Notes: a model not told the origin generated them from the sequence alone. A DNA stretch of 64,000 nucleotides from Giardia intestinalis (GCA_000002435.2 CM018791.1), one strand, 5' to 3'. Shown: positions 6,969-30,913, numbered from the stretch's first letter. Numbers and translations: made by a program.

Positions 6969-9380
6969 ATGTCTGGAGAGGGGTTCAGCTATAAAGCCGG
7001 TAAGTACCCTAGCACCTCTTTGCTCGAGACCAACTGTGCATACTTATGTCCTAGTGACTATGCTGCAGTTCTTGGCAACGAGAAGTCTGATAACGTCTAC
7101 CTCGAGAGGAACGGCCACGTCGTCCTACTGAGACCGGGAAGGGGCAGCGGGTCAGTTGCAGCCCACCACGACCCCATGCCCGAGGTTCCTCAGGGCGTGA
7201 TCCTCCTGTCAACGTTTCATAGAACAAAGTGGGCAGCGCCTTTGGACAATACTCCCATCACTGTGTCACGGTCCAAGTTTGACGCCACTGCCAGAGCCAC
7301 CACTGTGGTATTCATGATCAAGCCAATGGCTAAGCAACAAAAGCCAGTGACCATAGACACGGCAAAGCTCAAGGTCCGTATTACAGAGAAATTTGTCCAC
7401 CTCCCTCTTGCTATCGGTCAGGACCTTGCCATTAGTGACGGTTCTGACTTCTTCATCTTGGGGGTTGTTGGCATGTCTGGCAAGAACAAGGAGATAGTGA
7501 GCGACGAGACCACACTTGCTTTCTATAGGGATACTGAAGCAATCTTCCAGACTCAAACAAAGGAAATAAAGCTCACCGGGGAGTACGCAGTCGCAGAAGT
7601 CTCTGCGGTGGCTAAGGCGCTGATGAATCTCATCAACGACACGCCTGAGAAGAACGAGCAGGGGGGCATAACTAACGCAGAAAGCTTAGGAATAGGGGGC
7701 CTCAATAAGCAGTTTAAGGACATATTTAGGCGCGCATTCATGTCACGAATATTTCCACCGGACAAGTTGGCAGAGCTTGGCCAGACACACGTTAAGGGTC
7801 TCCTTTTGTACGGACCACCTGGCACGGGAAAAACGTTGACAGCCAGGAAGATTGGCGAGTTGCTGAACGCGCGGCCTCCAAAGATGGTTTCCGGTCCAGA
7901 GCTTCTGGATAAGTACGTTGGCGGGTCGGAGCAGAAGGTGCGCGATCTGTTCAGTGACGCGTTTGAGGAGTGGAAAGAGCGCGAGAATGCATCTGAGCTT
8001 CACATAATCATTATCGACGAGCTTGATGCGGTATGCAAACAACGAGGCAGCAAGTCGGACAACACTGGAACAATGGACAGCCTGGTTAATCAGCTACTTG
8101 CGATGATGGACGGGCCCGACGCGCTTGGTAACGTGCTTGTGGTTGGTATGACCAACAGGAAAGAGCTTCTGGACGAGGCTCTGATGCGTCCCGGCCGCTT
8201 TGAAGTGCACCTGGAGATTGGTCTTCCCGACTGCAGAGGAAGAGAGCAGATTCTGAGGATCCACACTAAAAACCTGGTTGCTGCCAAGTCTCTTGCAAGC
8301 GATGTCGATATCGCACATCTCGCTGAGCGCACTCCTAATTTCTCTGGCGCTGAACTAGCAGGTCTTGTTAGGTCTGCTACATCCTTTGCCATGGAGCGTG
8401 CTATTGAGAAAACAAAGTCGGTGGGTCCTAACAAGTTACCCAATTTGAACAAGGTTGACGTCCTGGTGGTGGCAGAGGACTTTGAAAGGGCCCTGGGGGA
8501 GGTTACAGCAGGATACGGCCAGGCAGACCGCACGCTACTAGATGCTGCAGCGCCTTTAAGTATCCTCAAGGCTACCGGCTACGAGTCTGTCGTCCAGCAG
8601 GCTGTGTCTTTTGGAGAGGCAGTCCTAAACAGCAGTATTACTACCGGCGCTATGCTGCTTGCAGCGCCTGCAGCTGGAACTGGTTGCACAGCTCTATGCT
8701 CTGTCATTGCGAAGAGGCTTGGATGTGAGTTTGTTCGAATTATCTCTGCAGAGCAGCTTGTTATGAGGACCTCGACAGAGTATGGGCGTGCAGACCTTAT
8801 ATGTCAAATCTTTGAGGCAGCCTACAGGGTCCCGCGCGCTCTAATAATTCTGGATGGCATAGAGTCCATCATACAGTATACGCCCATTGGCTTCCGATTC
8901 TCCAGTAATGTCCTCCAGACCCTCAACGCTCTCATTTGTAGACCAGCTCCGCCTGATCATAAACTTATTGTTCTCGGCACCACTACGTGCTTGACAGCAA
9001 TGAGCGACGTTGGGCTTGCAAGTGTCTTCGGTCAGGTTTGCAACATTCCATCCCTCACCCCCGACCAAGCCCTCTGCGCGCTCTGCGAATATGCCGCTGT
9101 TGCCCCCAATCTAGAGGAAAAACGCAACGCTACCCACCAAGTTAGCGTGAAATACTATCTCCAACCAAATCCCGTCAAGTATGAGGCGTATGCTGAATAC
9201 AAGCTCTTTTTGGAGAGGCAAAAGCAGGGTATTCCCATCACGATCCGCAATGTGCTACTTGCTTATGAAATGGCAAAGGTCACTGTCCGAAAGGATGCGC
9301 TCTCTCGTAACCCCAATGCGCAACAGGCCGTGATCACCGACTCCGTAATGGCCAGGACATTGAATGCAACGCTATCCTGA
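6969..9380 (+). CDS. NSF: N-ethylmaleimide-sensitive factor (NSF), vesicle-fusion AAA+ ATPase
   Basis: The D1 domain is NSF-like (GLLLYGPPGTGKTLTARKIGELLNARPPKMVSGPELLDKYVGGSEQKVRDLF) with a Walker B IIIIDELDA. A degenerate D2 P-loop follows (APAAGTGCT). I chose the start at ATG 6969 (MSGEGFSYK) behind the A-rich leader rather than the track's 6906. Confidence 0.9.
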   Translation: MSGEGFSYKAGKYPSTSLLETNCAYLCPSDYAAVLGNEKSDNVYLERNGHVVLLRPGRGSGSVAAHHDPMPEVPQGVILLSTFHRTKWAAPLDNTPITVSRSKFDATARATTVVFMIKPMAKQQKPVTIDTAKLKVRITEKFVHLPLAIGQDLAISDGSDFFILGVVGMSGKNKEIVSDETTLAFYRDTEAIFQTQTKEIKLTGEYAVAEVSAVAKALMNLINDTPEKNEQGGITNAESLGIGGLNKQFKDIFRRAFMSRIFPPDKLAELGQTHVKGLLLYGPPGTGKTLTARKIGELLNARPPKMVSGPELLDKYVGGSEQKVRDLFSDAFEEWKERENASELHIIIIDELDAVCKQRGSKSDNTGTMDSLVNQLLAMMDGPDALGNVLVVGMTNRKELLDEALMRPGRFEVHLEIGLPDCRGREQILRIHTKNLVAAKSLASDVDIAHLAERTPNFSGAELAGLVRSATSFAMERAIEKTKSVGPNKLPNLNKVDVLVVAEDFERALGEVTAGYGQADRTLLDAAAPLSILKATGYESVVQQAVSFGEAVLNSSITTGAMLLAAPAAGTGCTALCSVIAKRLGCEFVRIISAEQLVMRTSTEYGRADLICQIFEAAYRVPRALIILDGIESIIQYTPIGFRFSSNVLQTLNALICRPAPPDHKLIVLGTTTCLTAMSDVGLASVFGQVCNIPSLTPDQALCALCEYAAVAPNLEEKRNATHQVSVKYYLQPNPVKYEAYAEYKLFLERQKQGIPITIRNVLLAYEMAKVTVRKDALSRNPNAQQAVITDSVMARTLNATLS

Positions 9381-15300: not shown

Positions 15301-17567
15301 TGGAGTCACAGCTGGAGACGGCGAAAGCCACATCCACGACTATTATAAAGGGCCTAGAAGATCAGGTGGCACAGTATGAGCAGAGGATTACAGACTCTCA
15401 ACAGGCTACCATGACCTCACAGAGCTCTGATAGACAACTTATCGAGGCCCTCACTGCTGAGCTATTCACAAACAAAGAGAAGGCCAATAAGACCATAAGT
15501 GATCTTACGGACAAGCTGAATGAGTTGCAAGAGAGGCTGAACGAGGAGAAAGAGGCAAGTGTGATCACTGTAACGCGCCTAACCAGCCAAAATAGCAATC
15601 TCATGTCTGCGACATCTAATCTTACCAAAGAATTGGAAATAACAAAAGAGTCTCTCCGCACAGTTACAGAAGAGTTGACCGGACAGATGTCAAAGATACA
15701 GCTTGATGCCAAGGAGCGAGAGCAGCTGCTTCAAAGCAAGCTTGACGAGGTTACAGCTGAAGCCGAAGCAGCTGCTATGCGCCTTCACGAGCAAGTGACT
15801 CAAAAGGACAGCGAGATAAGACAGCTTACCGATGCGCTAGCTGAGTCTGCTCTACATTTGGAGAAATTAGACACAGAGAGCAAGCAAACGATATCACAAC
15901 TAGTCAGCGAGCTGGCGGAGGCACGGGAAACCATCCAGTTCATTGAGCAAAAAAACCAGCGGGATATGTCCGAAATCAGAAACAGCATTGCTACCTTCAA
16001 GGAGACAACTATAGAGTCTCAAAGGCAACACGCTTTAGATCTAGAGCATAAGGACGCAACGATCGCGCAGTTATCCAATGAACTAGAAAGCATCAAGCAA
16101 GCCATGGAATCTGCTAATTCAGCGCATCAAGCAGTGCTTGAAAAGGTAATGAAAGAGTCTGGCGAGTTAGCTCTTCAAAACAGCAAGTTGAAGACTGAAA
16201 TCCGAGAGCTACATGAACAGTTTGCCAAGACTAATGAAGAGGCTCAGCTGGCCTTTCGTGATCAAATGGAAGGAGCTGATGTGAGAATAGGAGAGCTTCG
16301 GGCACAGGTGGAAGCACTTCAAAAGGATCTGGAGAAGATGACGGTTTCGCGAGACGTCCTCTTAGATAAGCTTTCAGCAACGCATACGAAGAACGAGACG
16401 GATTCGGTAAAGCAAGGAGTTCCTGACTACGATGCCCTATTGAGCATGAGCCAAAGTATTCTCAGCAAAGACGAAGAGATCACGACCCTACGCTCACAAG
16501 TAGAGCTCATGAATAGTAAGCTTATAGCCGAAGAGGAAAATAACAAAAGGGTTGTTGACCACCTGCAAGGAGCAATAGAAGTCATGAACACTCAATACGA
16601 GGAGCTCAGAAGCATGAAGGACTCTGTTATAGAACGGTTGACCCGCCAGGTGAGGAGCACCAGCTCACGAATGCCATCCAGACCAGATTCTGCTGCATCC
16701 TCGAGGCGGGGGTCCTCTGTTGTCAACGAAGCAGATCACAATAAGAAAATTCACGCTTTAACAAAGGAATTGAAGGAGGCCAAGGAGATCTTTATGTACA
16801 CTGTTAGTATGAAAAATGATGAGATAGAACGCCTGAAGGAACAGCTAAAAGAAAAGGAGGAATTCATAATGAGCTTGTCTGTGGGCAGTGTGCTTGCAGA
16901 AAGCTCAAGAAGGCCAACCGAGGAGCTTCTAGAGATCAAGCGTGGGATAAAAGAAAGCGCTTTTCACGCAGAGGATATTTCATGGGAACTTGAGGATTTG
17001 CAGCGGCAAAACTTAGAATTACGCGCCGAGATAGCAGCGCTTACAGAGAAGCAGGCCCTTGTTCCCGAAGCGTCAACACCACGAGGAATCACCGATATAA
17101 CTGGGTCCGCTCAGTCTGCTATGTGTAGCGCCTCCATGGTTGACTCGCTTGCAGCGCTTCACGCGGACCTGAAAGCAAAGGATGAAACAATCCTCAGTCT
17201 ACAAGGTAAGCTCGCGATGGCGCAAGAGGAGCGAGAGGCGAAGCTTACCCAATTGTCGAGAGAACTGGAGCAAACAAAAAGAGCTTTGAGGGACAAGGTT
17301 GATGAGATTGTTAACCTATTAGCTATCATAGACCGTGTGAAAACAGAGTATGAGAATTACCGGGCAAGTACCGCCGTTGAGCTTTCCGGGCTCCGAACTG
17401 CGTTAGAAAAGTATCGAGGAAGTAAAGAAATAGATGCTTCTGATGTACGGATAGCTGAGCTGGAGGCAGCACTGGAAGCAGCTAAAGAGCAACTTAGCGA
17501 GGTTCTAAAGACTAAAAATGAAGAAATCGAACAACTAAGCATTCGGCTCGCAGCTAGAAGTATTTAG
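12354..17567 (+). CDS. Giant coiled-coil protein (1737 aa)
   Basis: Uninterrupted ORF with ATG behind tttaaaattttgg. Heptad-rich E/K/L/Q composition throughout. The Ser-rich antisense ORFs are compositional artefacts. Confidence 0.85.
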   Translation: MPAPVYSHQLDRAQPAQNGTHYHPYAKDDNIRIEDLQQPSVQLQGRDNYANLQSMNDDLMACISNSEYTLSSIRRDMQNQARALGTKASVNPELNGTSSPQQLGLSRGASRGVSATTPSRRYHDQADPRPIVRERPMSADSVRSNLGIATTESSDLEDLFMLTPRSYGVLASQQPDFASSQHIQQRGHRVANNKDLSQYYEEIDAVTAFNEGIMREKAVTIDALERNLKTLKVELNIKDREMAAARERIAELVKEVTERDSEIKGLKHKLENVKHNAERFILARDEEIARLAEELEQMDEHYQQKMKLKDSKLHAQHEELVLLTAKDDEIAGLRSKLSVLTEQLEHTENTFKAIVKSKDEQIETLKADVHAKRDYSLELQRIHESLSQVRKDCEEQLHQKDAELSKQREQVETAEKERSLLENEVTSLKAIVEKQEDLVIKLKGQLERSNPDVERLQQELDTLRIESQKAISAKVIEAEELKSKIHTLTTEMLMLPTQEDILEARNEVSKVTASMAAMIKTKDAEILSLRRKLEDYVELSEVQRLKGELTLSKAALADTIVQKTAEIRDLKEEMAILQIDEHASGAPSDGGSFDDKLKDLESSQNALEVSLGTQVELGALKRIYKEAMLARDHQIKTLSQRINDADAELATYRERIAHLESTSKEAPHMQERPATDSASPAIHDLRSELQSVKDAMAAAMVRNMREVATLEHQINQLKGENESLRIKRDDTVETVSIGICCEPEEQNGRVSFEARYAKCSQENERLSNELQLIAQELAKTRTAYSDVMKQLSGLNTELLITRNQASDALNTQALLESTLQEYEREVRTLRGSLESSLQQNREADSVNTKLQESLSESQLYDLQQKLEKSQADLERLRDDYSTMQATKDMVIHKISSEVIHQREMVDLAGEDMNRRLKEAEETVERLNNELLTQKEEFVTVVTDLEQQVEKLSAELQGSRESNEALIARMMRDITGLEKERSDLESQLETAKATSTTIIKGLEDQVAQYEQRITDSQQATMTSQSSDRQLIEALTAELFTNKEKANKTISDLTDKLNELQERLNEEKEASVITVTRLTSQNSNLMSATSNLTKELEITKESLRTVTEELTGQMSKIQLDAKEREQLLQSKLDEVTAEAEAAAMRLHEQVTQKDSEIRQLTDALAESALHLEKLDTESKQTISQLVSELAEARETIQFIEQKNQRDMSEIRNSIATFKETTIESQRQHALDLEHKDATIAQLSNELESIKQAMESANSAHQAVLEKVMKESGELALQNSKLKTEIRELHEQFAKTNEEAQLAFRDQMEGADVRIGELRAQVEALQKDLEKMTVSRDVLLDKLSATHTKNETDSVKQGVPDYDALLSMSQSILSKDEEITTLRSQVELMNSKLIAEEENNKRVVDHLQGAIEVMNTQYEELRSMKDSVIERLTRQVRSTSSRMPSRPDSAASSRRGSSVVNEADHNKKIHALTKELKEAKEIFMYTVSMKNDEIERLKEQLKEKEEFIMSLSVGSVLAESSRRPTEELLEIKRGIKESAFHAEDISWELEDLQRQNLELRAEIAALTEKQALVPEASTPRGITDITGSAQSAMCSASMVDSLAALHADLKAKDETILSLQGKLAMAQEEREAKLTQLSRELEQTKRALRDKVDEIVNLLAIIDRVKTEYENYRASTAVELSGLRTALEKYRGSKEIDASDVRIAELEAALEAAKEQLSEVLKTKNEEIEQLSIRLAARSI

Positions 17568-17572
17568 ACCAC

Positions 17573-18535
17573 TTAAGATATTCCTTCAACCTTATGAGAG
17601 ATGAATCCAGACTTGCAGCATGGACAGACTGCACGATCGGTAACTGATTCATAGACATCTAAGCAGTTACTATGGAATAAGGCACTACAACAAGAAACAG
17701 TTGAGACTGTGCAAGAGTCTTTCTCGGAGTCTGATGCTAGACTGATGAACGGTCCCTTGTATTCAAAGCTTTCAAAGCAGATGGGACATGCCATACTTTG
17801 ACGTTGACGTGTCTTCTCAATAACAGAGATCCAGTTGACTGCACGTGTGGCCATGAATGCTTCGAAGAGATCGTTAGTCTCATCTATTTCCTTTTGCAAG
17901 CGCCCTAACTCGCTGTCTAGCTTAACTCTTTGAGTAAGCAAGTAAGAATTCATATTATCTGCAGCGTGCTCTAGCTCTGCAACCAGAGCCCCTGTACTGC
18001 GCTTGCGAAGGGCTCTGTAACAGCGGCGTCCAAAATATCCCCGTATTGCTGCCTGGATGTCTCTGGCTGCTGAGATGCACATGTATGATTTCAAAAAGGA
18101 AGATTCGCGCATATTAGCAGGTGTCATACAAACTGGGCAACACCACCGAGCCTTCGACTGGGTCATCCAATTTACGAAGCACTCCTTATGAACTGCATGG
18201 CTGCAAGAAGAACATAGCATTTCAGAAGAGCCGAAGCGCTGAAGACATATAGGACAATGCCGTTCTTCCCGGACGATCCACTTTAATTCAGCTCTCCTCC
18301 ACTCTTCATCGGTCAATGGGGGAGGAAGAGTAGACGGCACAAGCTTCATGCGCTCTGCCCGCGTGCTTGGAGCTTGGCTATCGGTTGTAAACCTTGCTTT
18401 TTGGACAACACTGAAGCCTGGCTTCAGACCCATCTTGTGGAGATTATGAGACATCAGCGCTGATGATGCAGTGGCGACAGACCCTGACAAGCTTTTCAGG
18501 AGTTTCTGGGTAGAGAAGGATAAAGTAGGCCGCAT
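17573..18535 (-). CDS. Double RING-finger protein with an IQ motif
   Basis: Contains a RING-H2 pattern (CPICLQRF…CSHAVHKEC…CCPVC), a canonical IQ motif (IQAAIRGYFGRRCYRALRK) and a second C-terminal RING-like Cys cluster (CPICFESF…HSNC…CPCC). Its stop lies 5 bp from the convergent coiled-coil gene's stop. Confidence 0.8.
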   Translation of the reverse strand: MRPTLSFSTQKLLKSLSGSVATASSALMSHNLHKMGLKPGFSVVQKARFTTDSQAPSTRAERMKLVPSTLPPPLTDEEWRRAELKWIVREERHCPICLQRFGSSEMLCSSCSHAVHKECFVNWMTQSKARWCCPVCMTPANMRESSFLKSYMCISAARDIQAAIRGYFGRRCYRALRKRSTGALVAELEHAADNMNSYLLTQRVKLDSELGRLQKEIDETNDLFEAFMATRAVNWISVIEKTRQRQSMACPICFESFEYKGPFISLASDSEKDSCTVSTVSCCSALFHSNCLDVYESVTDRAVCPCCKSGFISHKVEGIS

Positions 18536-19623
18536 GAAATGCCCGATTTGTTAATATTTACTATTACGCAAAATATACAGGAACAAAGATGGTCCCCTTG
18601 AAGAGGCCAGTGAAGAAGATAGTTCCCTCCCTGCCCACAGAGTCTACGTGACGCTACGGGCTCTTATTGCTGAAGTACTTGCTGACTAATTAAACTAAGC
18701 TCTTTGATAGAAAATAGATCATCGCACTACATAGGAGAATTGCATGCACAATAGCCTTACCGGCAGATAGGTAAAAAGCGAATGAAAAATTGTATTGTAC
18801 TATGAGCCAAACTTTATCTTATAAAGATTGAGGAATCCCAGGTAATATATAACGGTTTGAATGCCAGCAAGATTCGCGACCGCAGAGCACACTGCAATCT
18901 GGCGACTGGTTTGGCCATGCCGCTTCTTTATCCGTTAGAAACTCGGCTGGGAGCGACAAAGAGCACGTCGGGAGAACCCGGTGGGAGGGGACAGGCGGGG
19001 CTTTCTGCGCCACGGGGGGAACCACCGCAGGAGGACGTGCAGGCACGCAAGCCAGGCCACAGTAGACACGCGGGCGCCCCTGTAGACCGGGCCGGCAGCA
19101 GGCGTCCGTAGAATCCGCGCCAGAGCCAGCTGCTCAAAAAACTGGGCAGCCCCTGGTCGTGTGCAAGCCTTGCAGAGCACTGCGGCCCCCGACACTCGGC
19201 GACCCCTCTCAGAGCGGAAGACCCCGCGGGCCGCAGGCAGCAGCTCGTCGTCGGCGATGCCCCGAACGAGGGGGACGGCCCCAGCCTGCCCGCCTCCGCA
19301 GAGCTCCGGGTATCTGTAGACAAACCGGGGCTGCGCAGGGTGCGGCTCTCCCTGGCGGCCGAGGGCAGGGGTCCCCGGCAATACCAAAAAACTCCGATCA
19401 ATACATCAGCCCCGGCGCCGCCGTGTGCAAAGCAGTCTGTTCTGTGTGGCGGCCCAAGCCAGCTCGTACTGCGGCGATGGCCCGGGTGAGGGCGCCCTGC
19501 TCGCCCGACGGACCGGGGCAGGCAGGCAACAAACACCCGCTAAAGCTTTTATGCAAGGCCTGTACATATTTAATTTCACATTATTCGTTGGTCTGTTTTT
19601 AGTTTTATCGCTGCTTCTATCGG

Positions 19624-20433
19624 ATGGGCTCTGGGGCAATGACGGCGGAGACGCGCGCCTCCGTTCTGCTCGAGCTCGCGAAGCAGGTCGTCGCTGCCCG
19701 GCGGCTGGGAGAGACGGCCGAGAGCCTCGCGCGGCGGCCGCTGCTCCTCCACCGGCACGTGCTCCGGACGGCCATCGACTGGAAGAAGATCGCCCGCGCC
19801 CTGTCCGAGGACCGGAGCAGGATCTACCACTGGTACCGCGAGACGCACTCGCGGAGCATCCTCAACGTGAAGATGACCGGCGAGGACCGCAGGGCCATCA
19901 AGGCGATGATCATCGCCGGGGTCAGGGACCGGAGCGTCCTGGGCCCGGACTTCTACCGCAGGGTCCACGAGCGCTTCGGGGCGAAGTATCCGCGCCAGGA
20001 GCTGCGGATGACGTACAACAACGCGCTCCGCACCCAGGACGTCCGCGCCGCCCTGGAGGAGCACGGGGTGGTGCTGCCGCGCCGCACATACGGCCCGAGG
20101 GCGGCCAGGCAGGAGGAGGAGGCATCTCCTGTGGCGGCCACTCCCCCGCCCCCCTGCGTTTTTGGTTGCGCCGCGCCTCCGCTGGTGCCGCCCGTCGGGG
20201 GGCCGGTCTTTGTGGTCCCGGGCGCGGTCTCTGCGCTTCTGCCCCCGCACGCGCCGGGGTGCCTCGTCCTCGCCCTCCCACCCGGGGTCGTTCCTGGGCC
20301 CGGCGTCCTCCCGCTCCAGACGGGCCAGGGCCTCCTTGGGCCGCCCGTTGCCTTCGCGTGCGTGCCATGCTTCCCCCCTGCGGGCTACGGGGGCGTCCCT
20401 GGGTGCGCTGATGCGAGCCCCAGTAAGGGTTGA
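19624..20433 (+). CDS. Arm gene, copy 1: Myb/SANT-like helix-turn-helix protein with a proline-rich C-terminal tail (269 aa)
   Basis: The ATG is preceded by the only A/T-rich block in this part of the arm (19560-19623, catatttaatttcacattattcg…). Codon third positions are almost all G/C in this frame only. About 40% identity by eye over ~100 aa with the gene at 53268..54242 (IDWKKIARAL..YHWYRETH / MTGEDRRAI / RMTYNNALRTQDVRAAL). In both, exactly 50 residues precede the conserved W. Confidence 0.7.
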   Translation: MGSGAMTAETRASVLLELAKQVVAARRLGETAESLARRPLLLHRHVLRTAIDWKKIARALSEDRSRIYHWYRETHSRSILNVKMTGEDRRAIKAMIIAGVRDRSVLGPDFYRRVHERFGAKYPRQELRMTYNNALRTQDVRAALEEHGVVLPRRTYGPRAARQEEEASPVAATPPPPCVFGCAAPPLVPPVGGPVFVVPGAVSALLPPHAPGCLVLALPPGVVPGPGVLPLQTGQGLLGPPVAFACVPCFPPAGYGGVPGCADASPSKG

Positions 20434-20546
20434 GGACTGGAGAACCCGGCTTGCTTGACGATTGTCGAAGAGTGGCCGGCAGGAACAGCCGATGGTTGGA
20501 TCCCTGATCAGTGACGAGACAGTTATATCTAGAGCGTGTAGCATGC

Positions 20547-21262
20547 TCAACCACGGCACAGCGCAGGGCCCACCAGACACAGGCTACGACGGTCTGGATG
20601 TCGCGCAACCCGCATTCTGCGCATTGCTGAAGAGACCACACACAGCAGACGAAGGCAGGGCTCTCCCATGTGCCCAGACGACTCGAACACCGCGGTCTGG
20701 GCCAACGATCTACCAGACAGGCCCGTCCGGTAACAGGCGACTGAATGCTCTCTGGGCCGTGAGCTAAAGCTGATGTGCAGCTGGCCGGCCACGACATTCA
20801 CCCTGGCTGGCCCTCTGTCTTCACGCGCCGACACGCCAAGGAGCTGTAGGGAAGTCGTGTGCTGTCTTGGCAGGTATATTATTACCTCCATGTATGCACC
20901 CTGGATGCGGCCACCATAGCACAGCTGCATCTCTGATCGTCCTGTACACGCCTCCTGGCACGAGTAGGTGCGCAGGAGGGGGTGCACTGCCCACCGCCGA
21001 GAAATGGATGAGCTCCCCTGCTCAGGAGCCGACGACCGCCAGCCATGCCCAACGAGGTCCCCTGCAAGGAGGCCTGCTGAGCCAGCTCTTCCAGCGAGCC
21101 GTGTATCTGGAAGAGCTCCGCGTTGAATGGCTCCTTGATTAAGGAAGCCGGAGTCCAGCGCGATGTGACGCCTGTCCGTCTAAGGCTGAGACTTCGGTCT
21201 GGTGCTTGCTGCTGAGCGAGCATTAAATGAGGCTGGCCAAAGAAGCGGCTCAGGGCTTTCAT
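20547..21262 (-). pseudogene. Possible frameshifted gene in the arm (two same-strand overlapping ORFs)
   Basis: ORF 20882..21298 (ATG at 21262, MKALSRFFGQ…) and ORF 20547..20987 overlap on the same strand in different frames. Both have coding-like composition. No homology recognised. Mirrored exactly at 27823..28538. Confidence 0.25.
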
Positions 21263-23312
21263 AGCTCTGTGTCTTCTTGTTCTGTTCGACTGAAACACCT
21301 GATCTCAGTGCTGACTGTTGGGTCTCCTCCTGTGGACGTGGTCCGGAAGTCTCACAGAGGACCTGTTTTTTTGTAATTTCTTCTAAGACGAAGGTAAGTC
21401 GTTCTATAGGATTAGGACTACATCTGTAGAAGCACAGCCCCGGTTAAAGCAGTAACATACAATTCGCAGATGCGTAGAATGCTTGCAGGAGAAAGCAGTA
21501 AGGAAAGATATCTCGATCATGACATAGACGTGAGACAGCACCACAGGCTGCCCAAGCAACCGGTCTGGATACGAGGTGCGGCATGATTACCCTTATCTAT
21601 CCTTTGCCAGGTGAGGGAATTCGACATAGAGCCTAGTCACCCTAACGGTCAGAACCAAAGGCAAAAGCTAGACCTGTGGTGTGTTGGCAAGTGATGGACA
21701 CAAGGGCATCCCTGGATGGACTGTTGCATGAGAGGGCGAAGGCCCATAGAGATGGGTTGCTCTCAGCACCTGCAGTGGGCAGCTTGCTCCGCGGCCAACA
21801 AGTTGTTGGGTCAGAAACAAGCACGGACGATGCCTGTCAGATGGGTCCGAGCCAGTCACCCGATGCCCCCTACGGGCCTCGTCCAACCGACACTCTTGAT
21901 TCTTGTCGAATAGCTCAGACAGACTGGGGAGAGGAAGGACTACCAGTCACCAGAGCTTGCTGCAGTGGGAGAGCCGGGCTTGGCTCGTCCCCGTCTTCAC
22001 ACAAGAGCGGGGAAGTGGGTTTACTTGCGGGACCCTTGGGCCGCGGCTGCAGGGGGGCTCAGTACTAGAGCGCTAGAAATAGCTGGCTGTCGAAGTAAAT
22101 CGTCGCTTTCCGGGGATGACATCTTCCTCGACCAGGGCAGCAGAAGAGACCCTCAATGCATCTGCCGGTGCTGGGGTGCGTCCTACCCGTCAGCGGGGCT
22201 TCATGGCTCCACTGGAAAGCCCAATCGTCCGCTTCTTGCTGTGCTCAGAGGACAGAGAACTAGGCAGGCGTAGTCCCATCCGCCCACCGGAGGGCTATGA
22301 GCGCCCCCGTCGTCCCATTGAGCAGCACCAGGCGCAGAAGAGGTCTGCCGGAAATGCGCCAGATGCAGTCAACGCTTTTCTGGGTGTAGTGTTAACAGAA
22401 TCACACGCTACGACGCGTCCCAGACAGGCTCCACCTGGCAGCGGCGCCCCAGAGGCGGGCCCCGAGGGACAAAACATTTCTGGCCCTGCCCCTGCTCCAA
22501 TGCGAGCGGCCCGCGGACAGAGCCGAGGACGGGGGCCAGTGCTCGGCCTCCTGCTGGTGCGGTGGCGCCGGGAGACCACCGGACCATCGACTCGGCAGCG
22601 GCAACCGGTGGAACGCCCTGGGCTGCTGCTGTGCCCATGCGCCTGGAGCGCGCCGCAGCAGCCCGGGATGGGTCCGCAGACAGGCGTGCCGCCCCAGCCG
22701 TCCCGGGGGCCGGCTCCTCGTGGCGGGCGCTCCTGCTCCCTTTGACTTTTCAAATGGAGAACGCAGTTATGGATCCTAGTTCTGCTGCAGAAGGTGCCTT
22801 ATGAGACGCAGCACAGCCACACCAAGCGGTATCGGGGCTGAACACTCCTTGGGACGGGCTCCTGGCGCATCTGAGAGACGCTCGTTGCTGTGCACTGCCT
22901 CTCGGGCCTTGGATGCACGTTGTGCAGAGCTGCAGGAGTCGCCCTTGCAGTTGTCAGTGGGCCGTTGATGGAGCCATTGAAAGCTCTGGACCGCTACTGG
23001 GCAGTACTGTCCCAGTGCACGTGTGGCAGCTTTGGCTCGCACTGGATGGTCCGTACAGATTGCAACGGAGCCACGAGGTGCATTAGTATGACATACACAT
23101 TGAGACAGTTGCAGTTCTATTCGGTCCAATCCACCTCCTTCTGGCCCTGTGCCGAGATTGCAGATTGCAAGTAGTGTTCGCGATAGACCCGGTGAGTGTT
23201 GATTCCATCAGCGCCTGTGGTCAACGTGTGCCAGAAGGATCAATCAACTGCATCAATCGACGCGGATTGACTGATGTACCGCGAGTATGTTCCTACCAAT
23301 CTATCAATCGGG

Positions 23313-23319
23313 CAATGTT
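23313..23319 (+). promoter_or_regulatory. vsp initiator-like context (CAATGTT) around the start codon
   Basis: The sequence caATGtt fits the PyA-ATG-TT initiator context that I recall being reported for many vsp genes. The assignment is from memory of the vsp literature and is not independently testable here. Confidence 0.35.
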
Positions 23320-25534
23320 TGGCAGTTTTGTTCTCGCGGGGGTACTCGTCCAGATTGCATGGGCAGGAAAAGCAACAGAGCGCGCGCAAGAAGCTCAATG
23401 CGCAGATAACACTAATTGCGCAGCAGAAGCATGCAACGTTCTGATCGGTGGTAAATTGTATTGCTCTCGATGTAACACAGGATTTGTTCCTATCAATGGA
23501 CAATGTGCAGACAAAGAAGGTGCAACAGATAAGTGCAAAGATGGCTCCGGAGGCGATACAGCTGATCAGACCTGTGGACAGTGCGCCGAGCAGACTTTCA
23601 TGTACAAGGGCGGCTGTTACGAAGCAGCCCAGCAGCCCGGACAGACCATGTGTCAGGCGGCAGATGCTGGAGTATGCACACAAGCCGCGCAAGGATACTT
23701 CGTGCCGCCGGGCGCAGACGCCTCTCACCAATCGGTTATACCATGTGGAGACGAAGAGGAAATAACGGTTAAAAACGATAAAAAGTACAAGGGCGTGCTG
23801 CACTGCACTCGGTGTAACGCTCCCACAGAAGCAGCAGATGCTAACGCCAAGGCCGCCACATGCACTGCGTGCCAGGCAGATAGGTATCTGAAGACAGCCA
23901 AGGACCAAGCCACCTCCTGCGTGACAGAGCAAGAGTGCACCGGCACCGAAGGGTTCTTCGCGAAAAATGGCGGCACCAAAACCTGTGAGGCGTGCGCTGA
24001 AACATGCAAGACCTGTAAGACCGAGGCTGCGAAGTGCACCTCTTGCAAGGACGACAAGCCGTACCTGAAGAAGGATAATGGCAGCGACACTGGCACGTGC
24101 GTCACCGAAGCTGAGTGCAAGACTGGAAACACCCACTACCCCGACGACACTGAGCCGAAGACGTGCAAGACGTGCGCCGAGGGGACCTCCGACGGGTGTG
24201 CGACGTGCGAGAAGGGCGCCGATGGAGCAGTCGCCTGCAAGACGTGCGGAAACCAGAAGAAGGTCCAGCCAAACAAGAAGGGGTGCGTTGAGAACTGCCC
24301 CTCGAACTCCAACGATAAGAAGACCCCTGGCACCTGTGAGTGCGTTGAGGGCTACGTTCCCGAGGAGGCCGGCACCGGGTGCACGAAGAAGCCCGACCCC
24401 CCTGCGGCGCCGTGCAACACCCCCGGCTGCAAGACGTGCAGTGAGCCGAAGACAAGCAAGGAGGTGTGCACAGAGTGCGAAGACCCCAAGGCCCTCACGC
24501 CCACGGGCCAGTGCATCTACGGTTGTGAGCACCTGGAAGGCTACTACGAGGGCACCAGCGAGGGGGGCAAGAAGGCCTGCAAGAAGTGCGAGGTCGAGAA
24601 CTGCCTCCTGTGCAACGAAAACGGACAGTGCGAGACCTGCAAGGACGGATACTACAAGAAAGAAACCGCCTGTGCCAAGTGCGATACCTCGTGCAAGACG
24701 TGCGCGAACGGGGAGCCCAACGGGTGCACGAGCTGCGAGGCTAAGAAGGCCCTCAGCTACGAAGGAGAGGGCAACACGGGGACGTGCAAATCAGAATGCA
24801 AACCGGGTACTAACAACTGCGAGAAGTGCGAGCTGACAGTCGATGGCACGGCCTACTGCTCCAAGTGCAAGGACGCCAACCAGTTCCCGCAGAACGGAGT
24901 CTGCTCGGCGGCGGCCGGAAAGGCTATTACGTGCACTACCAAAGGGACTGGTGTCTGTGACAAATGCGCCAACGGGCTTCTTCGGATGAACGGAGGCTGC
25001 TATGAGACGACCAAGTTCCCTGGAAAGAGCGTCTGTGAGGAAGCAGCATCGGCTGGGGATACCTGCCAAGTAGAGGCTCCAGGCTATCATCTTAATAACA
25101 ATGACCTTGTGACTTGCTCGGCCGGATGTAAGACGTGCACTAGTAACACCGTGTGTACTGAATGCATGGATGGGTATGCAAAGACTGATAATAAGTGCAC
25201 AAAGTGTGCCACTGGCTGTGCTACTTGTGCAGGATCCGCCTCAAATTGCGACACTTGCAGCACTGGGTACTACAAGTATAAGAACGCCTGTGTGTCTTGC
25301 ACGGAAAGCAACAGTGATAAGACTATCACCGGCGTCGCCAACTGCGCCAACTGCGCTCCTCCACTCAACAATAAAGGGTCTGTCCTCTGCTACCTCGTGC
25401 AGAGTGGCGAGAACACTAACAAAAGTGGTCTCAGCGCAGGCGCCATCGCGGGCATCGCTGTTGCTGTCATCATTGTTGTCGGCGGCCTCGTCGGTTTCCT
25501 TTGCTGGTGGTTTATGTGCAGAGGCAAGGCGTAG
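23315..25534 (+). CDS. Variant-specific surface protein (VSP), 739 aa
   Basis: Signal peptide MFGSFVLAGVLVQIAWAG, about 28 CXXC motifs and two GGCY motifs (KGGCYEA, NGGCYET). C-terminal TM helix followed by the invariant cytoplasmic tail CRGKA (…GFLCWWFMCRGKA*). The track start at 23165 is a TTG; the signal peptide begins at ATG 23315. Confidence 0.95.
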   Translation: MFGSFVLAGVLVQIAWAGKATERAQEAQCADNTNCAAEACNVLIGGKLYCSRCNTGFVPINGQCADKEGATDKCKDGSGGDTADQTCGQCAEQTFMYKGGCYEAAQQPGQTMCQAADAGVCTQAAQGYFVPPGADASHQSVIPCGDEEEITVKNDKKYKGVLHCTRCNAPTEAADANAKAATCTACQADRYLKTAKDQATSCVTEQECTGTEGFFAKNGGTKTCEACAETCKTCKTEAAKCTSCKDDKPYLKKDNGSDTGTCVTEAECKTGNTHYPDDTEPKTCKTCAEGTSDGCATCEKGADGAVACKTCGNQKKVQPNKKGCVENCPSNSNDKKTPGTCECVEGYVPEEAGTGCTKKPDPPAAPCNTPGCKTCSEPKTSKEVCTECEDPKALTPTGQCIYGCEHLEGYYEGTSEGGKKACKKCEVENCLLCNENGQCETCKDGYYKKETACAKCDTSCKTCANGEPNGCTSCEAKKALSYEGEGNTGTCKSECKPGTNNCEKCELTVDGTAYCSKCKDANQFPQNGVCSAAAGKAITCTTKGTGVCDKCANGLLRMNGGCYETTKFPGKSVCEEAASAGDTCQVEAPGYHLNNNDLVTCSAGCKTCTSNTVCTECMDGYAKTDNKCTKCATGCATCAGSASNCDTCSTGYYKYKNACVSCTESNSDKTITGVANCANCAPPLNNKGSVLCYLVQSGENTNKSGLSAGAIAGIAVAVIIVVGGLVGFLCWWFMCRGKA

Positions 25535-25549
25535 ACTTAGATAGTAAAT
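25535..25549 (+). terminator. Extended vsp poly(A) signal ACTTAGATAGTAAAT
   Basis: It lies immediately after the TAG stop (25532-25534). It matches the vsp consensus ACTYAGRTAGTRAAY, which contains the general Giardia poly(A) signal AGTRAAY. Confidence 0.8.
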
Positions 25550-27822
25550 GCGTCGATTCGCCTTCTTAAGGCGTGGAACTCTCGTTACGTCCACACTGCA
25601 AATGTGCTTGACGATTTCTAACATCTGGATTTTGTATAGCAGTCTGGAGTCGTGTGTGTGACTTTACTTTTATTCCACACTTCCAATAGTTTGCCACTGG
25701 ACTTCGCCTGCAAATGCAGCCTAGGAGTGCATGAATAAATAAACTTACATGTCTTCTTGGTAGAGCAAAGCAGACCCCTACTTGAGGACTTGGACCCGCT
25801 ACTCTATGCTTGTATCTGACGTAGTCGCACTTAGCCAAGGTGCACACCCTACTATCACTCGATAGCTCACCCTCTCGTTGTCTTAAAGGAGCAGCTCTTA
25901 GACTGCTGCCCAGTTGACTTTACCAAGTACTTGCTTATTTAAGCGAACTGTGAACGAACTTTCTGAATACCAGGTGAACCCTTATATCTAAAGACTACGA
26001 CACGTTCCTCATGTTCCAGTTCTACTGTAGTGACCTGTGAGGATGGTTGTATCCAATCTCAGTCCTCCAGCATATAGAGTATACACTAGTAACCATTTGT
26101 ACTTCATAACCTGTCTTTGTCTTCGAACGTGACTGAGCGACCGGATTATTCGCATGGGTTTAGCCCATATCTAAATAAGATCGAGAAGAGGCCACAAGAA
26201 TACTTTCTATAGCAAAGCTGGAGCTGCTAGCTACATATGCAACAGTTAGCCCCGCACCAGCAATCGATGCAACGGGGATGTGTGCCCACCCGAGCAGTAC
26301 ACAGCTGGCTACCCGTAATTATGCTCTCCATTTGAAAAGTCAAAGGGAGCAGGAGCGCCCGCCACGAGGAGCCGGCCCCCGGGACGGCTGGGGCGGCACG
26401 CCTGTCTGCGGACCCATCCCGGGCTGCTGCGGCGCGCTCCAGGCGCATGGGCACAGCAGCAGCCCAGGGCGTTCCACCGGTTGCCGCTGCCGAGTCGATG
26501 GTCCGGTGGTCTCCCGGCGCCACCGCACCAGCAGGAGGCCGAGCACTGGCCCCCGTCCTCGGCTCTGTCCGCGGGCCGCTCGCATTGGAGCAGGGGCAGG
26601 GCCAGAAATGTTTTGTCCCTCGGGGCCCGCCTCTGGGGCGCCGCTGCCAGGTGGAGCCTGTCTGGGACGCGTCGTAGCGTGTGATTCTGTTAACACTACA
26701 CCCAGAAAAGCGTTGACTGCATCTGGCGCATTTCCGGCAGACCTCTTCTGCGCCTGGTGCTGCTCAATGGGACGACGGGGGCGCTCATAGCCCTCCGGTG
26801 GGCGGATGGGACTACGCCTGCCTAGTTCTCTGTCCTCTGAGCACAGCAAGAAGCGGACGATTGGGCTTTCCAGTGGAGCCATGAAGCCCCGCTGACGGGT
26901 AGGACGCACCCCAGCACCGGCAGATGCATTGAGGGTCTCTTCTGCTGCCCTGGTCGAGGAAGATGTCATCCCCGGAAAGCGACGATTTACTTCGACAGCC
27001 AGCTATTTCTAGCGCTCTAGTACTGAGCCCCCCTGCAGCCGCGGCCCAAGGGTCCCGCAAGTAAACCCACTTCCCCGCTCTTGTGTGAAGACGGGGACGA
27101 GCCAAGCCCGGCTCTCCCACTGCAGCAAGCTCTGGTGACTGGTAGTCCTTCCTCTCCCCAGTCTGTCTGAGCTATTCGACAAGAATCAAGAGTGTCGGTT
27201 GGACGAGGCCCGTAGGGGGCATCGGGTGACTGGCTCGGACCCATCTGACAGGCATCGTCCGTGCTTGTTTCTGACCCAACAACTTGTTGGCCGCGGAGCA
27301 AGCTGCCCACTGCAGGTGCTGAGAGCAACCCATCTCTATGGGCCTTCGCCCTCTCATGCAACAGTCCATCCAGGGATGCCCTTGTGTCCATCACTTGCCA
27401 ACACACCACAGATCTAGCTTTTGCCTTTGGTTCTGACCGTTAGGGTGACTAGGCTCTATGTCGAATTCCCTCACCTGGCAAAGGATAGATAAGGGTAATC
27501 ATGCCGCACCTCGTATCCAGACCGGTTGCTTGGGCAGCCTGTGGTGCTGTCTCACGTCTATGTCATGATCGAGATATCTTTCCTTACTGCTTTCTCCTGC
27601 AAGCATTCTACGCATCTGCGAATTGTATGTTACTGCTTTAACCGGGGCTGTGCTTCTACAGATGTAGTCCTAATCCTATAGAACGACTTACCTTCGTCTT
27701 AGAAGAAATTACAAAAAAACAGGTCCTCTGTGAGACTTCCGGACCACGTCCACAGGAGGAGACCCAACAGTCAGCACTGAGATCAGGTGTTTCAGTCGAA
27801 CAGAACAAGAAGACACAGAGCT

Positions 27823-28538
27823 ATGAAAGCCCTGAGCCGCTTCTTTGGCCAGCCTCATTTAATGCTCGCTCAGCAGCAAGCACCAGACCGAAGTCTCAGC
27901 CTTAGACGGACAGGCGTCACATCGCGCTGGACTCCGGCTTCCTTAATCAAGGAGCCATTCAACGCGGAGCTCTTCCAGATACACGGCTCGCTGGAAGAGC
28001 TGGCTCAGCAGGCCTCCTTGCAGGGGACCTCGTTGGGCATGGCTGGCGGTCGTCGGCTCCTGAGCAGGGGAGCTCATCCATTTCTCGGCGGTGGGCAGTG
28101 CACCCCCTCCTGCGCACCTACTCGTGCCAGGAGGCGTGTACAGGACGATCAGAGATGCAGCTGTGCTATGGTGGCCGCATCCAGGGTGCATACATGGAGG
28201 TAATAATATACCTGCCAAGACAGCACACGACTTCCCTACAGCTCCTTGGCGTGTCGGCGCGTGAAGACAGAGGGCCAGCCAGGGTGAATGTCGTGGCCGG
28301 CCAGCTGCACATCAGCTTTAGCTCACGGCCCAGAGAGCATTCAGTCGCCTGTTACCGGACGGGCCTGTCTGGTAGATCGTTGGCCCAGACCGCGGTGTTC
28401 GAGTCGTCTGGGCACATGGGAGAGCCCTGCCTTCGTCTGCTGTGTGTGGTCTCTTCAGCAATGCGCAGAATGCGGGTTGCGCGACATCCAGACCGTCGTA
28501 GCCTGTGTCTGGTGGGCCCTGCGCTGTGCCGTGGTTGA
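27823..28538 (+). pseudogene. Mirror copy of the possible frameshifted arm gene
   Basis: ORFs 27787..28203 and 28098..28538 are identical in translation to 20882..21298 and 20547..20987. Confidence 0.25.
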
Positions 28539-28651
28539 GCATGCTACACGCTCTAGATATAACTGTCTCGTCACTGATCAGGGATCCAACCATCGGCTGT
28601 TCCTGCCGGCCACTCTTCGACAATCGTCAAGCAAGCCGGGTTCTCCAGTCC

Positions 28652-29461
28652 TCAACCCTTACTGGGGCTCGCATCAGCGCACCCAGGGACGCCCCCGTAG
28701 CCCGCAGGGGGGAAGCATGGCACGCACGCGAAGGCAACGGGCGGCCCAAGGAGGCCCTGGCCCGTCTGGAGCGGGAGGACGCCGGGCCCAGGAACGACCC
28801 CGGGTGGGAGGGCGAGGACGAGGCACCCCGGCGCGTGCGGGGGCAGAAGCGCAGAGACCGCGCCCGGGACCACAAAGACCGGCCCCCCGACGGGCGGCAC
28901 CAGCGGAGGCGCGGCGCAACCAAAAACGCAGGGGGGCGGGGGAGTGGCCGCCACAGGAGATGCCTCCTCCTCCTGCCTGGCCGCCCTCGGGCCGTATGTG
29001 CGGCGCGGCAGCACCACCCCGTGCTCCTCCAGGGCGGCGCGGACGTCCTGGGTGCGGAGCGCGTTGTTGTACGTCATCCGCAGCTCCTGGCGCGGATACT
29101 TCGCCCCGAAGCGCTCGTGGACCCTGCGGTAGAAGTCCGGGCCCAGGACGCTCCGGTCCCTGACCCCGGCGATGATCATCGCCTTGATGGCCCTGCGGTC
29201 CTCGCCGGTCATCTTCACGTTGAGGATGCTCCGCGAGTGCGTCTCGCGGTACCAGTGGTAGATCCTGCTCCGGTCCTCGGACAGGGCGCGGGCGATCTTC
29301 TTCCAGTCGATGGCCGTCCGGAGCACGTGCCGGTGGAGGAGCAGCGGCCGCCGCGCGAGGCTCTCGGCCGTCTCTCCCAGCCGCCGGGCAGCGACGACCT
29401 GCTTCGCGAGCTCGAGCAGAACGGAGGCGCGCGTCTCCGCCGTCATTGCCCCAGAGCCCAT
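28652..29461 (-). CDS. Arm gene, copy 2: Myb/SANT-like protein with proline-rich tail (269 aa)
   Basis: The translation is identical to 19624..20433. The same A/T-rich leader is mirrored at 29462-29525. Confidence 0.7.
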   Translation of the reverse strand: MGSGAMTAETRASVLLELAKQVVAARRLGETAESLARRPLLLHRHVLRTAIDWKKIARALSEDRSRIYHWYRETHSRSILNVKMTGEDRRAIKAMIIAGVRDRSVLGPDFYRRVHERFGAKYPRQELRMTYNNALRTQDVRAALEEHGVVLPRRTYGPRAARQEEEASPVAATPPPPCVFGCAAPPLVPPVGGPVFVVPGAVSALLPPHAPGCLVLALPPGVVPGPGVLPLQTGQGLLGPPVAFACVPCFPPAGYGGVPGCADASPSKG

Positions 29462-30913
29462 CCGATAGAAGCAGCGATAAAACTAAAAACAGACCAACGA
29501 ATAATGTGAAATTAAATATGTACAGGCCTTGCATAAAAGCTTTAGCGGGTGTTTGTTGCCTGCCTGCCCCGGTCCGTCGGGCGAGCAGGGCGCCCTCACC
29601 CGGGCCATCGCCGCAGTACGAGCTGGCTTGGGCCGCCACACAGAACAGACTGCTTTGCACACGGCGGCGCCGGGGCTGATGTATTGATCGGAGTTTTTTG
29701 GTATTGCCGGGGACCCCTGCCCTCGGCCGCCAGGGAGAGCCGCACCCTGCGCAGCCCCGGTTTGTCTACAGATACCCGGAGCTCTGCGGAGGCGGGCAGG
29801 CTGGGGCCGTCCCCCTCGTTCGGGGCATCGCCGACGACGAGCTGCTGCCTGCGGCCCGCGGGGTCTTCCGCTCTGAGAGGGGTCGCCGAGTGTCGGGGGC
29901 CGCAGTGCTCTGCAAGGCTTGCACACGACCAGGGGCTGCCCAGTTTTTTGAGCAGCTGGCTCTGGCGCGGATTCTACGGACGCCTGCTGCCGGCCCGGTC
30001 TACAGGGGCGCCCGCGTGTCTACTGTGGCCTGGCTTGCGTGCCTGCACGTCCTCCTGCGGTGGTTCCCCCCGTGGCGCAGAAAGCCCCGCCTGTCCCCTC
30101 CCACCGGGTTCTCCCGACGTGCTCTTTGTCGCTCCCAGCCGAGTTTCTAACGGATAAAGAAGCGGCATGGCCAAACCAGTCGCCAGATTGCAGTGTGCTC
30201 TGCAGCCGGGGATCTTGCTGGCATCTCACGCGACCGGGCTCTGGGTGTGCCTGCTCAACAGTAGCTACCTCATCCACAGAGTGCTGATGCAGATATTATG
30301 CGCTACGTATCAGTGACCACAGGGGCACCGATAGACAGGGTCTCAGCCTCAGTGCACAACGAAGGTTATCAAGCATAGCGAGGCTTACATACTGAGCATG
30401 GGTCCGTGCCCCGCGTGGTCTTCTTAAGAACTAGTGCATGAGTGTTTGTGAGACGATGCTATCCGTATGAGGCGGGCTATCCGTCGTACGCGAAGTGCAG
30501 TACGGCAGAAGTGGGTGATGCAGGAACCAGAGGGGGTGCTTCAGCACATCAGTCGTCGGCCCCTCTGCCTTCTGTCACGCCTGATGGACTCTCCTCTACT
30601 ATCGCAACTCAGTCGTGGTTGTCTGAGGAGAGGACTAGGTATTCAGTAGACAATGGAATCGCGTGGCCTGGACGCGATTTCGTGATGGCCAACACGGGTT
30701 ATCAGGCTGGCTGTGGTCTGGATATGTGGTACAGCTTCCTTCACTCAAGCAGGGGTTAACACCTGCACTAATACAGATCTACAATAAGACATACACCATG
30801 CCCAGTACAGTTGAAAGATAAAACAGAAAGATATTATATTAAACGATAGTTATATTTGCCGTCAATTGTTATTAATAGAGCTAACACCCCTGGTCAAAAA
30901 AACGTTCGCTGTG

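Follow-up and report, generated by a model that had tools for sequence, protein, structure and literature searches.

VSP9B10 is one of the reference antigens in the experiments behind the RNA interference (RNAi) model of antigenic variation in Giardia. In a 64,000-nt stretch of Giardia intestinalis WB DNA (hereafter the window), the gene for VSP9B10A, a variant-specific surface protein (VSP), lies in the loop of a long inverted repeat, and each arm of the repeat carries a copy of a second gene that points inward to the VSP gene. From this geometry a first-pass annotation had proposed, as inference alone, that the locus may give rise to double-stranded RNA (dsRNA), either by convergent transcription or by folding of a long hairpin. 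Is the repeat a device built on the convergent arm genes, or is it something else? We consider it reasonably probable that it is an old inverted-repeat cassette around vsp9B10A, kept by homologous recombination between its arms, and not a device of that kind. The evidence for this comes from the geometry of the repeat, from its counterpart in another assemblage, and from the orientation of the DNA between the arms.

The window was placed on WB chromosome 3 (1.97 Mb; record of 1,973,847 nt) by exact protein look-ups of its RING-finger, coiled-coil, RRP4 and arm-gene products, and the VSP of the spacer had been assigned to the same chromosome in an earlier survey (Adam 2010; PMC2996952). A repeat scan found two arms of 3,912 nt each, the left at 18861-22772 (plus) and the right, its reverse complement, at 26313-30224 (minus), around a single-copy spacer of 3,540 nt (22773-26312); no second repeat of at least 150 nt was found across the 64 kb window. 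Compared base by base, the arms show 10 mismatches, nine of them within the ragged outer ~21 nt and inner ~12 nt, and the sole internal mismatch sets 21673 opposite 27412. The near-perfect core (18882-22760 against 26325-30203) is identical at 3,878 of 3,879 positions, which cannot be chance, and at each end arm identity is lost abruptly, over about 12-21 nt. The cassette is bordered by the conserved housekeeping genes for the RING-finger protein and for RRP4 (the right-hand neighbour in WB).

The layout described by the first-pass annotation is correct. The duplicated arm genes, identical open reading frames (ORFs) of 269 aa that are present in the WB annotation as GL50803_0060974 and GL50803_00d60974 (the "d" in a WB gene name denotes a duplicate, PMC7000408), do face inward, the left at 19624-20433 on the plus strand and the right at 28652-29461 on the minus strand, and a complete VSP gene (23315-25534, plus) lies between the arms. 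Read-through from the right copy would be antisense to the VSP gene and read-through from the left copy would be sense, while a transcript of the whole unit could form a 3.9 kb stem (the 3,879-nt core, with its one mismatch). The interval given for the unit, 19560-29525, is an exact mirror pair from arm-gene start to arm-gene start, but the repeat itself extends beyond it by about 700 nt at either end.

The spacer gene encodes a 739-aa VSP (Pfam VSP, 5e-153) with the signal peptide MFGSFVL, a GGCY motif, a CRGKA end, the initiator CAATGTT and, past its stop, the extended poly(A) signal ACTTAGATAGTAAA. Its sequence is exactly that of KAE8302587.1, XP_001706983.1 and AAG16629.1, and this protein is VSP9B10A (GL50803_101074, vsp88), which is among the dominant VSPs of the WBC6 proteome (PMC7332775). 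A chromosomally tagged vsp9B10A was silent in untreated cells and was induced by the histone deacetylase inhibitors trichostatin A or splitomicin (PMC7066823). Because VSP9B10A is demonstrably expressed, the repeat context is not a constitutive silencer. The 2010 vsp catalogue lists vsp88 on chromosome 3 with 739 aa and the initiator CAATGTT, carrying no tail-to-tail, head-to-head, inverted-pair or linear-array flag (Adam 2010, Additional file 1; PMC2996952); its inverted-repeat setting was therefore unrecognised at that time.

The same architecture is present in the assemblage E isolate P15. The P15 contig with the orthologous RING gene (L024) has an inverted repeat of its own, with arms of 1,173 nt (2778-3950 and 7279-8451) that are 97.2% identical (33 mismatches), around a spacer of 3,328 nt holding a VSP gene whose protein shares 61.5% identity with VSP9B10A. 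In a global alignment of the two cassettes, the ATG, the stop codon and the AGTAAA hexamers each fall opposite their counterparts, and the inner arm ends of P15 map to WB 22900 and 26197, ~120 nt inside the WB ends (22772 and 26313). Identity between WB and P15 is ~72% in the arms, ~70% in the spacer and 87% in the flanking genes. The two arms differ by 0.03% within WB and by 2.8% within P15, against ~28% between the genomes; being far more alike within than between genomes, the arms appear to evolve in concert. The simplest reading of these alignments would be that the inverted repeat is older than the divergence of assemblages A and E, and that gene conversion has homogenised it separately in the two lineages.

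The two repeats differ in extent. The P15 arms match the inner WB arm only (about WB 21745-22900), single-copy homology on the RING side continues to WB 20903, and the arm gene together with ~2 kb (WB 18748-20903) is absent at the P15 locus, which either lost this gene part or never had it. With no arm gene in the P15 repeat, the convergent copies are a trait of the A lineage and are not what the cassette conserves. Between A and E, conservation within the cassette is highest in the 250 nt 5' of the VSP ATG (23060-23314, plus; P15 L024 4095-4362), which ends in the initiator CAATGTT and is 85% identical, compared with ~70% in the VSP coding sequence and ~72% in the arms. This stretch, which is not A+T-rich, may be a conserved vsp upstream control element.

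The orientation of the spacer also differs between lineages. In WB, RING is encoded on the minus strand and the VSP on the plus strand, with the VSP 5' end toward RING; in P15 one strand carries both genes, and it is the VSP 3' end that is toward RING. Against L024, the flanks of the window match the reverse complement and its spacer matches the forward strand, so that the WB spacer is collinear with the P15 spacer and inverted relative to the RING-finger flank. An AII contig (L001) matches the window up to 22772 and then runs for 990 nt along the reverse-complemented right end of the spacer, on the VSP 3' side. In GS, too, a VSP 3' end is directed at RING, although that VSP is 37% identical and its orthology is uncertain. 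As far as these assemblies can be relied on, the WB spacer thus appears to be inverted relative to P15, to the AII contig and probably to GS, a difference between lineages. A flipped spacer in WB is the expected product of crossing-over between inverted arms.

Within assemblage A, AI (WB) and AII are 98-100% identical in the flanks, 89-97% in the non-coding arm and 91-98% in the visible part of the spacer. In the arm gene, the N-terminal part (19500-20249) is ~98.5% identical and the part encoding the Pro-rich C-terminus falls in the 89% bin. Along window 18750-23750, compared with the AII contigs L001, L007 and L008, divergence rises from 0-2% in the flanking genes to 4-11% from the outer arm boundary through the non-coding arm and spacer. 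The high divergence of the non-coding arm indicates that there is no strong sequence constraint there.

If the cassette is indeed old and kept by recombination, its history could be reconstructed as follows: (i) the repeat would have been present before assemblages A and E split, with gene conversion between the arms homogenising them and crossing-over between them flipping the spacer, as in plastid inverted repeats; (ii) in the A lineage the repeat would have spread outward over an adjacent Myb-like gene and the long non-coding tail behind it, yielding the duplicates GL50803_0060974 and d60974; and (iii) the conserved AGTAAA hexamers would end the transcripts of the arm gene (or of a separate tail) near 22100 and 26980, so that these units would normally be insulated from the VSP gene, and the signal at 25663 would end leftward transcripts 130 nt before it. 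As the arms are mirror images, a flip leaves the surroundings of the VSP gene within 4 kb unchanged, and the inversion is therefore probably neutral for expression.

Several points weigh against this reconstruction. L001, as a short-read contig across a 3.9 kb repeat, could follow an arbitrary path; the P15 path hinges on the 33 differences between its arms; and the GS VSP, only 37% identical, is maybe not an orthologue. The flip is seen only between lineages. Termination at AGTAAA is presumed from the hexamers, and polyadenylation without a signal and kilobase-long 3' untranslated regions (UTRs) both occur in Giardia (PMC3610916). Finally, concerted evolution and recent independent duplication both predict arms that group by genome, and an independent origin of the WB and P15 repeats is possible, given the inverted duplications with ~3 kb spacers that Giardia has.

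This last point leads to the alternative that survives best, although we regard it as unlikely: that the A and the E lineage each acquired, separately and recently, a functionless inverted segmental duplication of the sort behind the identical vsp pairs, and that the two frame the same VSP gene by chance. WB has many inverted duplications with 2.6-3.8 kb between the copies, its virtually identical arms fit a young duplication, and the arm lengths in the two genomes are very unlike (3.9 against 1.17 kb). However, the framed VSP genes are orthologous and the inner arm ends fall within ~120 nt of each other on both sides, which is not what separate events would be likely to produce, and the outer boundary is apparently common to AI and AII isolates.

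The usual poly(A) signal of Giardia is AGTRAA, and its distribution bears directly on the dsRNA proposal. One arm and the spacer together contain only four copies, at 22094 and 25543 on the plus strand and at 22020 and 25663 on the minus strand; the mirror AGTAAA copies in the other arm lie at 26986 (minus) and 27060 (plus), and none is near the arm-gene stop. The two in the arm stand back to back, 74 nt apart (22020-22099, mirror 26986-27065), as TTTACTT, the minus-strand AGTAAA at 22020, and AGTAAATC on the plus strand at 22094. The signal at 25543-25548 (plus) is the VSP gene's own, inside ACTTAGATAGTAAA, and the minus-strand AGTAAA at 25663-25669 lies 130 nt past the VSP stop, its P15 counterpart being 135 nt past the stop of the P15 VSP; a role in ending transcripts is presumed for it. 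All four occur at orthologous P15 positions (L024 3126, 6606, 3051 and 6732; mirrors 8098 and 8173) despite ~28% divergence. The 22020/22094 pair is kept in AII and in both P15 arms, and 22094 is also kept in a paralogue of the arm gene in DH, at the point where the paralogue homology ends.

Consequently, a transcript from the right arm gene would have to pass two conserved minus-strand signals (26986 and 25663) over 3.1 kb to become antisense to the VSP gene, and one from the left arm gene would pass one signal (22094) over 2.9 kb to reach it in sense. A full hairpin transcript of 11 kb would meet three plus-strand signals (22094, 25543 and 27060), and the stops of the convergent arm genes are 8.2 kb apart.

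Against this background it is improbable that the locus acts as a hairpin or convergent-transcription source of dsRNA, in which a read-through or arm-spanning transcript would be cut by Dicer and would modulate VSP9B10A or the paralogues of the arm gene. The geometry, a long inverted repeat with convergent ORFs, does fit, and no canonical AGTRAA lies close to the stop of the arm gene. Dicer, Argonaute and an RNA-dependent RNA polymerase are all present in Giardia, with RNAi implicated in vsp control (PMC8957917; PMC2817412), and repeats that generate endogenous small interfering RNAs (siRNAs) are known in Giardia from the work cited in PMC11080815 (Liao 2014). The at least five further WB copies of the arm gene that are >90% identical are possible targets in trans. 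Overlap of transcripts is common where convergent genes lie close together (81% of tail-to-tail gene pairs show it), and 46.8% of mapped WB poly(A) sites have no poly(A) signal; the median 3' UTR is 80 nt, and a few reach several kilobases (PMC3610916).

On the other side stand the conserved hexamers between each arm gene and the VSP gene (two of them on the antisense route), the gene-to-VSP distances of 2.9-3.1 kb, the P15 repeat with no arm gene, and the expression of VSP9B10A, which together make the RNA interpretation unlikely. In addition, a hairpin would leave the VSP sequence in its single-stranded loop, and any siRNAs would therefore correspond to the arms, not to the VSP. No member of the arm-gene family appears in the small-RNA gene table of PMC11080815, which uses an old annotation and an unclear treatment of unique mapping, nor are the family's gene IDs in the supplements of PMC3610916. 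The sequence signals lean against dsRNA or read-through, though low-level read-through or small RNAs may occur even so.

A broader proposal, also quite improbable, is that the repeat frame is a conserved cis-acting part that sets how often VSP9B10A is chosen, whether by arm dsRNA, a paired boundary or recombination, and that an inverted-repeat context biases VSP choice in general. The general form of the idea comes from vsp1267 and vsp9B10A, two much-used expressed WB variants that both lie in inverted-repeat structures.

There is only a slim chance that the arms work as paired insulators, a chromatin boundary that would separate the epigenetic state of vsp9B10A from that of its neighbours. 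The arrangement is kept across assemblages, the cassette sits between the RING-finger and RRP4 housekeeping genes, and vsp expression, including that of vsp9B10A, responds to histone acetylation (PMC7066823). Yet the non-coding arm diverges by 4-11% between AI and AII where the flanks diverge by 0-2%, suggesting little constraint, and repeats of this kind are not known at most solitary vsp genes.

Could the repeat itself be an error of assembly? Among short-read contigs with the identical RING protein, from many independent isolates, most are in the 5-10 kb class (87 of 103 index blocks). The RRP4-side flank yielded contigs of 1 kb only. The seven mapped Logan short-read contigs, from independent AI-like isolates and 98.5-100% identical to WB, end at window 18877-18989, which is the outer arm boundary, and the short-read AII-type contig L001 spans flank and entire arm and enters the spacer. 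An artefact origin, in which the repeat was falsely duplicated or mis-joined in the long-read WB assembly, is very unlikely and can be set aside: long near-perfect arms do resemble a collapse or expansion error and the exact WB gene products have no record in the contig index, but independent short-read assemblies break at the arm boundary, L001 connects flank, arm and spacer, P15 shows an inverted repeat of its own here, one internal mismatch tells the WB arms apart, and the WB annotators recorded the duplicate gene.

The credible gene occupies ~810 nt of each 3.9 kb arm, and the remaining 3.1 kb is GC-rich. Across the arm the GC fraction is 0.53-0.73, against ~0.49 in the flanks, and GC enrichment extends to the P15 arms, which reach 0.67 (L024 3000-4000); this composition could be the result of GC-biased gene conversion in a constantly converting repeat. 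None of the ten longest open frames of the arm had a Pfam match, a 291-aa frame antisense to the arm gene had no homologue anywhere, and in tblastx comparisons of WB with P15 and with the paralogue the six frames scored alike, with no frame-specific coding signature. A search of the whole window against Rfam gave no match at gathering thresholds, and none within 18500-26400 at E-values up to 1; tandem repeats or short local hairpins of note were likewise absent from arm and spacer. Ribosomal DNA or retrotransposon debris was considered as a source of the GC-rich arms and was rejected for lack of any rRNA match or reverse-transcriptase similarity; tblastn with Giardia reverse transcriptase reached a best E of 0.8 in the unit, and no long open frame had any Pfam match.

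Between the arm-gene stop and the conserved AGTAAA lies a non-coding tail (20434-22110, plus; mirror 26975-28651, minus) with patchy homology to the region downstream of the DH paralogue and to the VSP flank of P15. The tail is 1.66 kb long, has no poly(A) signal at the arm-gene stop, and matches the DH tail (L002 10880-13396) in patches of 67-75% identity. The DH paralogue protein is only ~45% identical, and its locus shares the gene and the tail patches as far as WB 22090, which indicates that "gene plus tail" is an old unit. Either a 3' UTR of unusual length or a non-coding transcript of its own could account for the tail. The genes downstream of a distant family member (L016) were considered as an intact version of the arm tail and did not match the arm.

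The arm protein consists of a conserved ~155-aa all-alpha N-terminal domain and a Pro-rich tail, and belongs to an orphan family. Its fold may weakly resemble that of Myb/homeodomain proteins. Neither it nor its distant relatives matched any Pfam family, the Myb/SANT sequence models included, a PDB sequence search with the arm protein found no match, and it has no VSP domain. Just upstream of the arm-gene ATG, an A+T-rich stretch (19555-19620, plus; mirror 29465-29530, minus) is a candidate promoter or initiator. The >90% identical WB copies mentioned above are spread over several chromosomes, paralogues of 40-45% identity occur in DH and P15, and GS has a relative of 63% identity; a family profile matched only 78 cluster representatives among 1.84 billion. 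Other family copies in WB are GL50803_0061066, 103981, 137682, 114778 and 112150.

A distant paralogue of the arm gene is also found inside the window (53097-54242, plus; 33% identity over the N-terminal domain). It lies 23 kb away in an ordinary gene-dense setting with no surrounding repeat, and the family therefore has "housekeeping-looking" members beside its amplified copies. The DH paralogue (L002, contig AHGT01000031.1) has a reverse-transcriptase ORF (16554-18026, minus) 5.7 kb away and an adjoining ankyrin-repeat gene. Such a neighbourhood is of the type described for Giardia as the surroundings of variable multigene families.

In assemblages A, E and B alike, a vsp site adjoins the RING gene. 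In P15 a second, unrelated VSP gene lies beyond the repeat (L024 992-2344, minus), and in GS there are VSP fragments 1.5 kb from RING (L026 1-1864). RRP4 is on a different P15 contig, a break of synteny relative to WB.

How does this cassette compare with known systems? The closest are the inverted vsp pairs of Giardia itself (vsp1267 type; Adam et al. 2010, Xu et al. 2020). WB has 14-19 identical pairs of this kind with 2-4 kb between the copies (published 2,190-3,847 bp), and 6.9% of its genome is duplicated (PMC2996952; PMC7000408). They share with the present locus near-identical inverted copies on one chromosome, abrupt divergence points, a single-copy middle of 2-4 kb (here 3,540 nt), an association with vsp genes, and a tendency to break short-read and Sanger assemblies. 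In those pairs, however, the arms are vsp genes and the middle is non-coding or holds a reverse-transcriptase remnant or a NEK kinase, whereas here the arms hold a non-vsp gene and non-coding DNA and a single vsp gene is in the middle, so the duplicated gene is not the vsp. Conservation in another assemblage and a difference in orientation have not been reported for the inverted vsp pairs, and the cross-assemblage conservation, the apparently concerted arms and the flipped middle are new relative to them.

The large inverted repeats of plastids, and the yeast 2-micron plasmid, likewise have kilobase arms that are near-identical within a genome and diverge between lineages. As in plastids, the middle is found in both orientations (here between lineages) and the arm boundaries expand and contract; the present locus differs in being nuclear and chromosomal, with no evident FLP-like recombinase. 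Bacterial invertible segments (Hin, Fim, shufflons) also place a surface-antigen region between inverted repeats in two orientations. Those systems use short repeats and a site-specific recombinase, and the flip connects or disconnects a promoter; here the arms are kilobase-long and mirror-symmetric, promoter and gene flip together, and expression should not switch.

Hairpin-RNA endo-siRNA loci of Drosophila and plants, and the inverted-repeat or convergent siRNA loci of T. brucei, resemble the cassette in having a long near-perfect inverted repeat in a host with Dicer and Argonaute. They are defined by one arm-spanning transcript and abundant Dicer products, while the Giardia locus is known from its sequence geometry, has a 3.5 kb spacer with an expressed protein gene, and carries conserved poly(A) signals on the path. 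The IR-L and IR-R elements of S. pombe are identical inverted repeats (~2 kb) around an epigenetically controlled domain. Boundary activity has been demonstrated for them; the domain here is a single gene in 3.5 kb and is known from sequence.

With this analysis vsp9B10A, a solitary gene in the 2010 catalogue, is placed in the loop between near-perfect inverted arms of 3.9 kb, which adds a second design, with non-vsp arms and the vsp in the loop, beside the inverted vsp pairs. The locus offers a natural case in which to study how mitotic recombination and gene conversion act in a parasite that is binucleate and tetraploid. The repeat also matters in practice: reads from the arms and from both GL50803_0060974 copies are multi-mappers, targeting or tagging constructs at vsp9B10A may recombine with either arm, and claims of antisense or small RNAs at vsp9B10A must allow for the repeat. 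If the RNA idea were true, Giardia would have a defined endogenous hairpin locus beside an antigen gene, though this is unlikely on present evidence. The idea that the frame influences VSP choice is directly testable, since for VSP9B10 there are already tagged lines, a monoclonal antibody and public data sets of RNA and small RNA. The main value of the finding is a defined, testable structure attached to one of the best-studied Giardia antigens.

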